Both the position numbers and the translations under genes were made by a program. A stretch of 62,064 bases of DNA, filler included, from Desulfonatronovibrionaceae bacterium (GTDB taxonomy: Bacteria; Desulfobacterota; Desulfovibrionia; Desulfovibrionales; Desulfonatronovibrionaceae), in assembly GCA_046539845.1 (NCBI GenBank). It is 5 parts of 5 records of this genome, joined end to end, with 100 filler letters (N's around TTAATTAATTAA, not from the genome) between each part and the next. Parts side by side here need not be neighbours in the genome. Positions count along the whole stretch, not along the records: positions 25,887 to 38,562 come from JBKHGE010000057.1; 4 more parts are not named here. One strand, 5' to 3'. Under the pieces are notes generated by a model. It did no database searches. It was not told the origin of the DNA and was given only the letters and a program-made list of their open reading frames with translations. Positions within the stretch are counted from its first letter, which is position 1; the number at the start of each line of letters is the position of its first letter. Below are positions 81-58,404 of the stretch, piece by piece.

Positions 81-242
81 TTGGCGCGGGTATCGCTATG
101 CGATACACACGGGCGGCCTGCGGCCGCGTACGGTTTTTATGTACCCTTGAACCCGTGTGTCCGACTTCAAGGAGGAATAACAGTGTAAGAATCAGCCTCT
201 GATTCTCTTCTCCATTCGCGTACATTCGCGTTATTCGCGGGC
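81..242 (-). repeat. Dispersed two-motif intergenic repeat, inverted homolog of 58072-58203
   Basis: 81-96 is the exact reverse complement of 58188-58203 (gcgatacccgcgccaa). The reverse complement of 224-242 matches 58072-58090 at 18/19. ATTCGCG occurs three times (214, 224, 233). Confidence 0.75.
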
Positions 243-2964: not shown

Positions 2965-3140
2965 AAATCCATTTGAATTCGAGTCCCGGAAGGACCCCTT
3001 GGCGGAACTTAAAAAACTCGACCCAAAAGTCTGGGAGCTCAAAGAAAGGGGCGAATAAATTCTTTTTCAGACGTTGCGGTACCGATTTTTCCCATGCCAA
3101 TCGTCGAAGGACATTTTTATCCCCCCAGCCCAACTCCGCC

Positions 3141-3190
3141 CATAACCATATCCCCGCATAATCACTTAAGCACATAACCACATACCCCAT
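3141..3190. repeat. Degenerate 8-bp-period tandem repeat (cataacca/cataatca/cttaagca)
   Basis: 3159-3180 matches the reverse complement of 57957-57978 at 20/22 and resembles 58276-58297. Confidence 0.7.
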
Positions 3191-14679: not shown

Positions 14680-14919
14680 AACCGCCCGCTTCGCTAAAGT
14701 CGCGGAGGACGCCAAGGGTAAATATTTCTGTCCGCGGGGAAACCGCGGACAGAAAAGTTGCCCGATTCCTTTCGGGATCATTGTTGTTGATCCCTGTGGT
14801 TATAGCTGGTGAAGCGATCTTTTTGAAAGCAGCTTTCCCTGCTTTCAAAAATGTTCTGCTTGGCGAACTTCGAGTCTTGAGCCCGGCACTCAGGATTTCT
14901 GAGTGCCGGGCGGGCGGTT
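14680..14919. mobile_element. 240-bp gene-less MITE/REP-like element related to the repeats flanking the GxxExxY gene
   Basis: Terminal inverted repeat aaccgcccgc/gcgggcggtt; subterminal inverted arm at 14859-14882; four internal hairpins; 14680-14790 is colinear with 37999-38110. Confidence 0.7.
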
Positions 14920-24907: not shown

Positions 24908-25147
24908 CCCTCCGGGTCGTGAACTTTTTCGACGTTTGCTGTAGAGTTTATCCGCCTGGTATTTTTGGATGTTAAGCTACCGGACCGGAACACACAAAAT
25001 TACTGGGCAAACAAGCAGTTATGAATTTTTATTTCTTGTCCCCCCGGGCCGGAAGCCTTCTTTTTTAAACCCAATCCGGAGGCATCAATTGTACAGAAAA
25101 CAGCCGGAAATTTTGCTCTATCCAAACAAGGCGACAAAGGATAAATC

Positions 25148-25648: not shown

Positions 25649-25686
25649 AGCCACGGTAGCGAGCGGGCCTGCCTAATAAAAACATT

Positions 25687-25729
25687 TAAAAGGATAAGGC
25701 GGATAAAATCCACTTCAAACGTCGAGGAG
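25687..25729 (+). repeat. About 42-bp dispersed repeat (taaaaggataaggcggat..aatcca...aacgtcgagg)
   Basis: Near-identical to 26006-26047 on the next contig; an inverted copy lies at about 25921-25972. Confidence 0.75.
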
Positions 25730-25951: not shown

Positions 25952-26047
25952 TTCATCCGCCTGATCCCTTTTGATGCCAAACCCCGAGCCTTTCGTTAAA
26001 AGCCTTAAAAAGGATAAGGCGGATGAAATCCATATCCAACGTCGAGG
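25952..26047. repeat. Inverted pair of the same dispersed repeat
   Basis: 25952-25972 and 26007-26027 are inverted, matching at 19/21. Confidence 0.7.
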
Positions 26048-36589: not shown

Positions 36590-36657
36590 ATAATCAAAAT
36601 GTTAAAAGCTAGGGATTTTGGCATCAACCCTTTTTCTCTGTTTTTACCGGGTAAAGT

Positions 36658-37872
36658 ATGCAGTACACCTATACGGCCCTAACCGAAAACGGGACCGAGA
36701 CCAAAGGGACCCTGGAGGCCAACTCCCCGGATGAGGCCCGGGAGATTCTGGCTGCCCGGGGCTATATCCCCACTGTTGTTAAGTCCGGGTCCGGAAGCGG
36801 GACTGGGTTCTGGGAGGATCTGCGGGTGCGGCTGTCCAAGGTCAAGCCGCAGCAGCTCATTCTTTTTACCAAGCAGTTTAGGACCATGTTCCGGGCCGGA
36901 ATTCCGGTTATGGATATCTTCCGGACCATGGAGCACCAGACCGAGAACCGCAAACTGCGCTCGGTAATAGTGGAGATGGCCGGGATGGTCCAAGAGGGCT
37001 CTTCCCTTTACGACGCCTTTAACGCCCACCCTGAGGTATTCTCCCCCTTGTACTGCAGCATGGTTCAGGCCGGGGAGACCAGCGGGTCCCTGCCCGAGGT
37101 GATGGAGCGCCTGGTCTATCTTCTGGAGCACGAGCAGAAAGTGCGCAACGATATCCGCTCCGCTCTGCAGTACCCGATCATCGTGGTCATCGCCCTTGGA
37201 ATCGCCTTTTTTGTCCTTTTGACCTTTGTCATCCCCAAGTTTGTGACCATCTTCAAAAGCGCCGGCATCGATCTGCCGCTGCCCACAGTCATTGCTATCG
37301 GCCTGTACAATTTTCTGGCCGGGTACTGGTATTGGATAATTCTGGCGCTGATCGGATTAATTATGGCTTCAGTGTGGTTTTTTCGCCGTCCCTACGGCAG
37401 GCTGCTTTTGCACACTTTTTTGCTCCGCATCCCGATTTTGGGGCCGGTATTCATGAAGTCGGCCATGTCCAGGTTTGCCAGCATCATGGCCATCTTGCAG
37501 TCCAGCGGGGTTTCGGTCTTGGATTCCTTGGATATACTTTCCCGGACCATAGGCAATTCTGCTATCTCCCTGCAGTTTGACCGCGTCAAGGAACAACTTA
37601 AGGAGGGCCGGGGCATTTCCGGGCCGCTAAAGAGCGCCAAGTATTTCACACCCATGGTCGTGGACATGGTGGCCATAGGCGAGGAAGCCGGTAATCTGGA
37701 CGAGATGCTCCGGGAAGTGGCTTCCCATTATGATGAGGAAGTGGAGTACGCGGTGGGCCAGATGACCACCAATCTGGGGCCTATTCTGGTTGTCGGGCTG
37801 GCTGCTGTGGTCGGTTTTTTCGCCCTGGCCATATTCCTGCCCATGTGGGATCTGACCCAGATGGTGCAGTAG
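36658..37872 (+). CDS. pilC: GspF/PilC/MshG inner-membrane platform protein
   Basis: FTKQF.TM..AGIP, AGETSGSL, ALQYP, IGEEAGNLDEML and IFLPM motifs. Confidence 0.92.
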   Translation: MQYTYTALTENGTETKGTLEANSPDEAREILAARGYIPTVVKSGSGSGTGFWEDLRVRLSKVKPQQLILFTKQFRTMFRAGIPVMDIFRTMEHQTENRKLRSVIVEMAGMVQEGSSLYDAFNAHPEVFSPLYCSMVQAGETSGSLPEVMERLVYLLEHEQKVRNDIRSALQYPIIVVIALGIAFFVLLTFVIPKFVTIFKSAGIDLPLPTVIAIGLYNFLAGYWYWIILALIGLIMASVWFFRRPYGRLLLHTFLLRIPILGPVFMKSAMSRFASIMAILQSSGVSVLDSLDILSRTIGNSAISLQFDRVKEQLKEGRGISGPLKSAKYFTPMVVDMVAIGEEAGNLDEMLREVASHYDEEVEYAVGQMTTNLGPILVVGLAAVVGFFALAIFLPMWDLTQMVQ

Positions 37873-37910
37873 AAAGTTTGCCCGATCCCTTCCGGGATCA
37901 GTTTGTTGGA
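37871..37910 (+). repeat. Partial copy (second hairpin) of the GxxExxY-associated repeat
   Basis: agaaagtttgcccgatcccttccgggatcagtttgttgga resembles 14751-14790 and 38071-38110. Confidence 0.65.
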
Positions 37911-37993
37911 AAGGACTGCTGAACCAGCATGAGCTGTGCATGTAGAGTTTGACCAAGATGGTCAAGTAGAGGCGTGGGGGGAAAGCAGGAGAC

Positions 37994-38110
37994 CATTGAA
38001 CCGCCCGCTTCGCTCAAGGCTCGGAGGACGCCAAGGAAGAATATTTCCGTCCGCGGGGTTGACCGCGGACGGAAAGTCTGTCCAATCCCTGCCGGGATTG
38101 TTTTGGTGGA
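37994..38110 (+). repeat. GxxExxY-associated repeat, upstream copy with two hairpins
   Basis: 37994-38048 is identical to 38508-38562; hairpins at 38044-38075 and 38083-38100. Confidence 0.9.
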
Positions 38111-38129
38111 GGATGAGAAGGACCTTGAA

Positions 38130-38513
38130 ATGGATACCAATACCATAGGTAAAGATATAGTTCACTGTGCAATCAAGGTACATTCCACGCTTGGACCGGG
38201 TTTGCTGGAAACAGCATATCAAAAATGTCTGACCTGGGAACTTGAACAGATGGGTCATGCTGTTGAATGTGAACTGGATTTGCCTGTCAAATATGGACCA
38301 ATAACCCTAGAGGCCGGGTATCGTCTGGACATGCTGGTTGACGGCTGCGTGATTGTTGAAAACAAGACAGTTGATTCCTTGCTGCCAATCCATGAAGCCC
38401 AACTGCTCACCTATATGAAAATGAAAAAAGTAAATCTGGGATATCTCTTGAACTGGCACGTGCCTTTGATGAAGCAGGGGATAAAACGCATGATCCTAGC
38501 AAGAGATCATTGA
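38130..38513 (+). CDS. GxxExxY family protein (PD-(D/E)XK-like fold)
   Basis: 127 aa; HSTLGPGLLETAY (GxxExxY), RLDMLV...VIVENK and HEAQLLTYMK...GYLLN. Confidence 0.92.
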   Translation: MDTNTIGKDIVHCAIKVHSTLGPGLLETAYQKCLTWELEQMGHAVECELDLPVKYGPITLEAGYRLDMLVDGCVIVENKTVDSLLPIHEAQLLTYMKMKKVNLGYLLNWHVPLMKQGIKRMILARDH

Positions 38514-38562
38514 ACCGCCCGCTTCGCTCAAGGCTCGGAGGACGCCAAGGAAGAATATTTCC
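38508..38562 (+). repeat. GxxExxY-associated repeat, downstream copy cut by the contig end
   Basis: 55/55 identity to 37994-38048; contains the gene's TGA stop. Confidence 0.9.
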
Positions 38563-38662
38563 NNNNNNNNNNNNNNNNNNNNNNNNNNNNNNNNNNNNNN
38601 NNNNNNTTAATTAATTAANNNNNNNNNNNNNNNNNNNNNNNNNNNNNNNNNNNNNNNNNNNN
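38563..38662. other. Artificial contig linker
   Basis: N44-TTAATTAATTAA-N44. Confidence 0.98.
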
Positions 38663-55452: not shown

Positions 55453-55490
55453 AAAGCCCGGCACTCAGTAAAATTGAGTGCCGGGCTTTC
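55453..55490 (+). terminator. Terminator-like hairpin after flgE (REP-like hairpin copy 3)
   Basis: aaagcccggcactca / tgagtgccgggcttt 15-bp stem. Confidence 0.65.
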
Positions 55491-55571
55491 GGTTTGGATT
55501 TTGCATAAGGTATTTTTAAGGTCCTTTGGTTATGGAGAGTAAAGAATGGGTAAACAGGTACTGGAGTAGAT

Positions 55572-57944: not shown

Positions 57945-58305
57945 GTGGTTAAGTGATGCTTATGTGCTTAAGTGGTTAAATGAGGAAGGATTATTATCAC
58001 AGCGTCTGCAGATCTTCGCAGATGAAAAAATATCAGAGATGTTAGCGGGTGGGAAAAGAAAAGAAGAGTTTGCCCGCGAATCACGCGAATAAAAGCGCAG
58101 AAAGACAGTAGCCCGATCAATGGCTAATTTTTAGACTGCCTTTTTTGCCGTGTGCGGCTAAGCAGGGCCGATCTTGTGTGTCGCGCAGCGATACCCGCGC
58201 CAAAGCATATTTTCCTTGGCACTGGGGTTAGAAATTCTTTGTTCTCAATTCCCGCCTCGGCGGCGAGTCCCCCACTAACTATTTAAGCACATAAGCACTT
58301 AACAC
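57945..58305. repeat. Composite non-coding repeat element bounded by inverted 8-mer arrays
   Basis: 57957-57978 and 58276-58297 are inverted (20/22); the interior carries motifs shared with 81-242. Confidence 0.7.
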
Positions 58306-58404
58306 AGCCCCCCAAACAGCCTTTTCTTTCTTGACGGGCATATCTGTTGCGGATACAAAAAAGCGCATTTTATTTTAGTTGGTTGAATATAATTGGTTGT
58401 TTCC

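Follow-up and report, generated by a model that had tools for sequence, protein, structure and literature searches.

The GxxExxY gene at the end of contig C57 of a draft Desulfonatronovibrionaceae genome (GCA_046539845.1) lies in an element that is real, though truncated, and that belongs to a widespread and apparently unpublished family of small elements. We consider it fairly probable (roughly 0.6) that the locus is a head-to-tail cluster of an element resembling insertion sequences (IS) and their MITE derivatives, in which a decayed unit would be followed by a gene-bearing unit and then by the start of a further unit, the element being bounded by two inverted arms. The GxxExxY protein would bind double-stranded DNA at the heptamer arrays, much as transposases do at the repeated sites in their ends, and would cut at or near the arm termini, after which host repair would move, duplicate, invert or delete the unit. 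For as long as a genome has a cognate gene, its gene-less copies would be mobilised in trans, and they would persist once that gene has gone; the two identical left arms at the locus would reflect a recent duplication or homogenisation.

The locus at the end of contig C57

In the window, that is, the whole stretch of 62,064 nucleotides that was analysed, N spacers separate five contigs, all from a single draft genome (G000, 65 contigs). Contig C57 terminates within it at 38562, at the end of the GxxExxY locus. The features referred to below are as follows.

14680..14919, no strand: complete gene-less element, with left arm, hairpin 1 (14725-14755), hairpin 2, short interior, hairpin 3 (14820-14851) and right arm
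36658..37872, + strand: PilC/GspF-family gene (context), whose stop codon abuts the first partial unit
37871..37993, + strand: decayed partial unit, with the right foot of hairpin 1, hairpin 2 (37884-37899) and a decayed interior
37994..38048, + strand: repeat copy 1, comprising the left arm and the start of hairpin 1
38044..38075, no strand: internal hairpin 1, a perfect 13-bp stem with loop GGTTGA
38083..38100, no strand: internal hairpin 2, a 7-bp stem
38130..38513, + strand: GxxExxY gene, 127 aa, PD-(D/E)XK fold, with profile matches and the invariant residues intact
38508..38562, + strand: repeat copy 2 (the left arm again), which contains the TGA stop and is cut at the 55-nt assembler overlap
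38563..38662, no strand: N spacer separating contigs C57 and C58, past which the DNA is not contiguous

The first-pass annotation had read the ORF at 38130-38513 as a 127-aa GxxExxY gene, and profile searches agree (TIGR04256, E 2.8e-38; PF13366, E 2.4e-36), the scores for GxxExxY and PDDEXK_3 being 130.8 bits (cut-off 35) and 125.1 (cut-off 22) respectively. It is the sole GxxExxY gene found in the assembly. Its GC content is 44 %, that of the genome 55 %; no promoter of sigma-70 type was found for it, and the locus has no Rfam match. The layout proposed in the same annotation is also accurate: 37994-38048 and 38508-38562 are the same letter for letter, with the likeness extending 10 bases leftward with 2 differences, and the second copy, which runs to the contig end, includes the TGA stop (38511-38513). 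The left arm of copy 1 has its TTGAAC terminus at 37996, followed by the units CGC[insert]CAAG, CTCGGAG and CGCCAAG, to about 38036. The partial unit that had been noticed at the pilC stop is likewise real, with hairpin 2 and a decayed interior; it ends in an 8/10 copy of the 3′ tail of the GxxExxY gene, is without a left arm, and has its best matches among gene-less copies in congeners. We note that pilC ends MVQ-stop at the junction (37860-37872), and that related pilC pieces in the sequencing runs extend about three codons more, so that the partial unit may have clipped the pilC end.

The repeat had been described as perfect and 55 bp long; its identity stands, but the length is a lower bound, as 55 nt is the k-mer overlap that the assembler leaves at contig ends, and the true repeat is therefore at least 55 bp. 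Exactly 55 nt are common with another place at 35 of 130 contig ends, a further 14 share 51-54 nt elsewhere (49 for 51-55 nt), and only one shares more (68 nt). This coincidence of length is what might be expected if the local direct repeat were an assembly artefact or the trace of an excised 514-bp circle, and the same may be said of a 540-nt contig (37998-38537) that closes on itself in runs X1 and X2 with no exit branch seen, and of an X3 contig of depth 4 that leaves the gene end and, 137 nt later, arrives again at the start codon. We nevertheless regard either origin as very improbable. The junction from gene end to repeat, with its own left flank, is present in run contigs from all four runs compared with 36600-38562, which were X1 and X2 (both possible sources of the assembly), X3 (same study) and X4 (another study) out of 20 candidate runs; the X4 piece is 426 nt long (38112-38537) and has 7 differences from the locus. 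Depth over the unit is not above that on the pilC side (30 vs 39 in X1 and 43 vs 45 in X2), so the unit is not amplified, and the X3 joint, for which the pilC link is missing, is no demonstration of a circle. Branches and tips are moreover dropped from contigs, and the same architecture is found inside contigs of the homologous loci L042 and L069.

A right arm beyond the second copy was seen in none of the four runs, no other contig end of the assembly maps into the unit to carry the sequence past 38562, and neither a near-identical locus in a scan of metagenome proteins nor the exact junction pattern in viral contigs (0 matches) was found. As to an empty site after pilC, genomes G001-G003 and G014 have no close pilC orthologue (at most 37 % identity), and the orthologue in G004 (54 %) ends at a contig edge.

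Several other features of the window may be recorded here. Tandem repeats of the TAAGCACA type with an 8-bp period occur at 3135-3189 and 58268-58314, a structured repeat (AAAAGGATAAGGCGGAT...AACGTCGAGG) is present at 24929-24973, 25677-25727 and 25952-26047, near a contig break, and a tmRNA gene stands at a contig start (50732-51091, minus strand).

Homologous loci, the protein and its arms

Searches gave 175 loci with a GxxExxY match, of which 140 are near full length with flanks and 121 remain after one of each pair more than 85 % identical is dropped. The first-pass annotation had proposed a survey for cognate repeats beside homologues, and a repeat common to both flanks scored above 30 at 108 of the 117 non-redundant loci with at least 200 nt on each side, this threshold being the 99th percentile of 463 short control ORFs, all from this genome alone. 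Together with the co-variation of protein and repeat and the existence of gene-bearing and gene-less forms described below, this sustains the view of the locus as a candidate undescribed mobile element.

By eye, the close homologues are arranged as L-gene-R (L001, L003 and L006), LR-gene-LR (L004, L068 and L071) or L-gene-L..R (L042, whose protein is 81 % identical, and L069), where L and R are the left and right arms; since they vary in this way, it is the inverted arms that define the unit. The L-gene-L...R form favoured earlier thus has precedents, from which we infer that it is also the arrangement at the window locus, but it is one of several forms and not the defining architecture. In L006 the order is L-hairpin-gene-hairpin-R, the right half being the same as in 14680-14919. 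At L035 (G035:C4:248151-248947) two near-identical GxxExxY genes stand in tandem, 449 bp apart, with half an element between them. At L072:386-2180 the same arms surround a DUF4258 and YokU/MqsA-like pair, and a BrnT gene with its partner follows after another arm pair; these toxin-antitoxin-like genes within arms are possibly captured cargo.

The family is widely distributed. Among the 8000 candidates scored, 7999 are GxxExxY family matches; the closest named homologues include Desulfovibrionales records, 22 of 71 genomes sampled from this phylum carry GxxExxY, and single genomes have up to nine such genes. Most paralogues in the same genome are only 27-56 % identical, and phyla are intermixed on the protein trees. 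Matches were found in eight of 72,556 plasmid records and in none of 50,697 phage records.

PF13366 is the sole Pfam match of the 127-aa protein, which has no Rpn match; no Atlas look-alikes were found outside PF13366, no solved relative was found by sequence, and PADLOC returned only a weak Cas4 match (E 0.024). An alignment of 89 sequences shows no variation at residues E27, D67, E77, K79, Q91 and Y95, all of which are intact here, and a QxxxY motif is typical of RecB/Cas4-type nucleases. The structure model has a pLDDT of 96. Foldseek gave no match at E <= 0.001, the top rows being AdnA, Cas4 and Hjc, and a wide structural search has 3ijm as its best match (Z 8.0, rmsd 3.3, 100 aligned), with numerous PD-(D/E)XK chains after it; this speaks for the fold but points to no particular function. 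Against L042, dN is 0.11 and dS 1.15 (dN/dS about 0.10); to judge from these comparisons the nuclease motif is intact and under purifying selection.

An arm typically consists of three heptamers of the form C-R-C-N-R-A-X (three units in 139 of 216 arms) in inverted orientation, with a spacing of 8-10 bp, and is about 40 bp long in this lineage. The heptamer rule was written after the first loci had been seen, so that its fixed positions are circular; it called 78 of 121 loci and left 43 uncalled, including the window locus, where a small insert splits the first unit. The last base X is G at 52 of the called loci, T at 16, A at 7 and C at 3, and on the tree of the 78 proteins it needs 4 changes (minimum 3), compared with a mean of 24.4 after shuffling. 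X follows the protein tree and not the host. With only about four events on the tree this points to linkage and constraint and establishes no recognition code. A comparison of arm words that makes no use of the rule (61 loci) also finds them correlated with protein distance (Mantel rho 0.25, 0/2000 permutations), and in 13 of 17 cases the words are nearer to those of the closest protein elsewhere than to those of the best paralogue in the same genome, the remainder being three ties at zero and one case in the opposite direction. At a protein identity of 73-79 % synonymous sites are already close to saturation or beyond it, and the retention of non-coding arm words across 35-50 % identity hence implies selection. 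Among loci fetched later, Gly117 is present at 22 of 23 G-type loci and at 0 of 15 others. Arg120 was considered as the residue reading heptamer base 3 and was rejected, as the 6 of 121 proteins without it look like one lineage and several Arg120 loci have no C at that position.

The earlier suggestion that the protein recognises hairpin arms, by analogy with RAYT, did not fare well. The analogous scheme with another fold would have the protein recognise and cut hairpins of single-stranded DNA, or else an extruded cruciform, in the way that Hjc acts on four-way junctions. Complete elements do fold back strongly, the fold matches include Hjc, Cas4 and AdnA, and at one site G030 and G050 have the element interior in opposite orientations; internal hairpin 1 is perfect, and stems of this kind, with differing sequences and a similar loop, are found at seven of the ten closest loci, where they may have a structural role. 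A perfect stem of at least 10 bp is present at only 22 of 121 loci, however, and the arms themselves argue the other way. When 43 left/right arm pairs (38 loci) are compared, the free base N4 proves complementary 73 times out of 125 in register and 144 times out of 244 out of register, and one spacer base has a modest in-register excess (45/82 vs 28/80); mismatches between arms, counted at 69 of 121 loci, lack strand bias (238 G-T vs 227 A-C, p 0.64). Since N4 is not kept complementary, double-stranded binding sites are favoured over a RAYT-like reading of hairpins, and the arms appear to behave like inverted arrays of such sites rather than like a selected one-strand stem. The multi-copy occurrence of GxxExxY genes (up to nine) and their mixing across phyla are also unlike RAYTs, and we consider cutting of single-stranded or extruded DNA unlikely.

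Gene-less copies and mobility

The segment at 14680-14919 is, as had been noted, a complete gene-less element with both arms. A first regular expression for the arms gave 9 matches in the genome compared with 4-10 in shuffles, and profiles were used instead; the arm profile has 10 matches at E <0.01 in this genome, some of which are its own training rows. Five occupied sites (14.7 kb, C3 twice, C20 and C24) are without the element in G002 and G003. In G001 there is no element at C20, the element at C3:5500 is shared, at least one arm is present at the second C3 site, and the 14.7-kb site has the same termini with a different interior. Because the flanks are too diverged, the element ends are not readable at the empty sites. 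The copies at G000:C3:5500 and G001:C26 have 1 difference in about 170 bp, in a region that is 85 % identical as a whole.

Gene-less copies G002:C68 and G001:C73 still contain a piece of the gene, about 58 nt long and covering codons ~84-103 (nhmmer E-values 7e-7 and 1.5e-4; 0/500 shuffles), from which it follows that they arose by internal deletion, in the manner of MITEs. For 14680-14919 and 37871-37993, a comparison with the gene itself finds no significant remnant (221 and 189 of 500 shuffles as good), and 14680-14919 matches the G002 remnant only indirectly (21/33, 0/10000). An X4 contig that joins 38102 to 38411 (85 % likeness) likewise speaks for internal deletion. It had been proposed that recombination between the two L copies yields the gene-less form; this is not needed, given the remnants in G002 and G001 and the right half of L006, although such a pop-out is possible at the window locus.

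Copies are dispersed in other genomes as well. G030 has 24 arm matches and at least nine full gene-less copies of 206-213 bp that are 89-97 % alike; at one of these sites G037 has no element and G050 has it in inverted orientation. In G115 two gene units, 98 % identical (7 differences in 348 coding nt), lie at unrelated sites, and their similarity stops 56 and 67 nt outside the gene, just past the arms; this is the only near-identical dispersed pair of gene units within one genome among the 175 loci. A target duplication of fixed length was found neither at the nine G030 copies nor at the G115 pair; the empty sites were too diverged to define ends. G030, G037, G050 and G136 carry this arm type, but searches found no gene to match it in any of them; in that genus the closest GxxExxY copy, from G046, is interrupted by three in-frame stops. 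These results, like the T-type arms described next and the genes enclosed at L072, tell against a strict link between arms and a cognate gene.

Arms of T type (CCCGCGAAT-NACGCGAAT) occur in the window at 58071-58203 and 81-241 (minus strand), and also in C54, C44, C22 and C37, with a shared 38-bp interior piece. The T-type arm has 9 matches in this genome, against 1-3 in shuffles, but the searches of the assembly yielded no GxxExxY gene of T type.

Two further motifs accompany some gene-less copies. The first is another family of repeats, hairpins of the form CCGGCACTCA-loop-TGAGTGCCGG with 15 regular-expression matches genome-wide, among them those at 14880-14911, 55455-55494 and 1279-1309; it is partly nested in right arms, including that of 14680-14919 (14880-14911), and mostly stands alone, and a long-loop form (C7:26145) resembles the G001 interior at the 14.7-kb site. 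No link of this family to Y1 transposase loci was found. The second motif, GCCCGCAACCCAA, is asymmetric and has a short hairpin in front of it; in some gene-less copies (G000:C8:27591, C16:6780 and several G030 copies) it is situated 10-20 bp beyond one of the arms, and it was found at none of the 121 gene-bearing loci.

These observations also bear on whether the protein might be a passenger or a regulator. The arms would then be operator-like sites or hot spots of recombination that owe their spread to a different enzyme or to recombination by the host, and GxxExxY would simply be their commonest cargo. Such a role would suit the DUF4258/YokU-like and BrnT genes enclosed by arms at L072, the arm families present without a detected cognate gene, the failure to find a fixed-length target duplication, and the tandem gene copies at L035, which may arise through flanking repeats. 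Against it, the catalytic-type residues are invariant, the type-specific arm words track the protein and not the host, and 0 of 8 Y1/HUH transposase loci in this genome and three congeners have arms or family-B hairpins nearby. We hold a passenger or regulatory role to be quite unlikely, and prefer an IS- and MITE-like element acted on by its own protein, although the single near-identical gene pair, the arm families with no matching gene found and the failure to find a target duplication count against this reading too. A bolder proposal is that GxxExxY proteins are the sole mobilising enzymes, stand-alone PD-(D/E)XK transposases or recombinases that would read a simple, diversifying heptamer code in their ends, of a very widespread undescribed class of elements of roughly 0.5 kb, and that they would move gene-less copies and captured cargo in trans, with several orthogonal types per genome; we put this forward only tentatively, as something short of probable.

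Relation to known systems and significance

In the general model of an IS with its MITEs, terminal inverted arms enclose one gene, and internally deleted copies lack it. The element described here resembles such a system in its terminal inverted arms, single small gene, more numerous deleted gene-less copies and lineage-specific occupancy of sites, but it is not a member of the known IS, RAYT or integron families. It departs from the IS model in having a 127-aa PD-(D/E)XK protein with no match to DDE, HUH or serine transposase families, arms made of heptamer arrays, no fixed target duplication found, and identical multi-copy gene units that are rare. An integron cassette with attC shares with it a promoterless ORF, a stop codon in the AAC end of the repeat, GTT at the far end and toxin-antitoxin-like cargo (L072), whereas here the mismatches are without strand bias, the gene is mostly inside the palindrome and the units are dispersed.

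The ends of Tn7 hold repeated binding sites, and TnsA works with other Tns proteins. TnsA is named as a PD-(D/E)XK transposase (PMC3424549), and GxxExxY shares its nuclease class; cutting of transposon ends is a feature of TnsA that GxxExxY may have in common with it. Unlike TnsA, GxxExxY is one small protein alone, with no linked partner gene. REPIN/RAYT and TIRtron/TIRYT systems, as described in two reports (10.1101/2021.07.10.451892; PMC3733652), have dispersed extragenic palindromic or inverted repeats with a variable spacer and a cognate gene among them, as seen here; the RAYT itself is there an HUH/Tyr protein, single-copy and vertically inherited, which cuts single-stranded REP DNA. GxxExxY differs in being a multi-copy PD-(D/E)XK protein, mixed across phyla, that seems to move with its arms, and these arms are without the pairing signature. 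For Rpn we know of no flanking arms. Rpn/YhgA-like proteins form a transposase-annotated nuclease family linked to RecA-independent transfer (PMC5350276), and belong to a different Pfam family (PF04754).

PDDEXK_3 is given as of function unknown, with multiple transfers (PMC3424549), and GxxExxY is mentioned in passing (10.1101/2021.01.26.428298). A search by titles and abstract openings, with most subscription journals outside it, found no published description of such an element.

The window locus is one more truncated instance, and its value lies in tests at the level of the family. The arm consensus supplies a concrete candidate substrate, with natural specificity variants in heptamers ending in G, A, C or T, and the function of GxxExxY proteins thereby becomes directly testable. 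If the protein does mobilise its unit alone, it would represent a new and very small chemistry for the movement of DNA, and several unnamed families of intergenic repeats would be explained.
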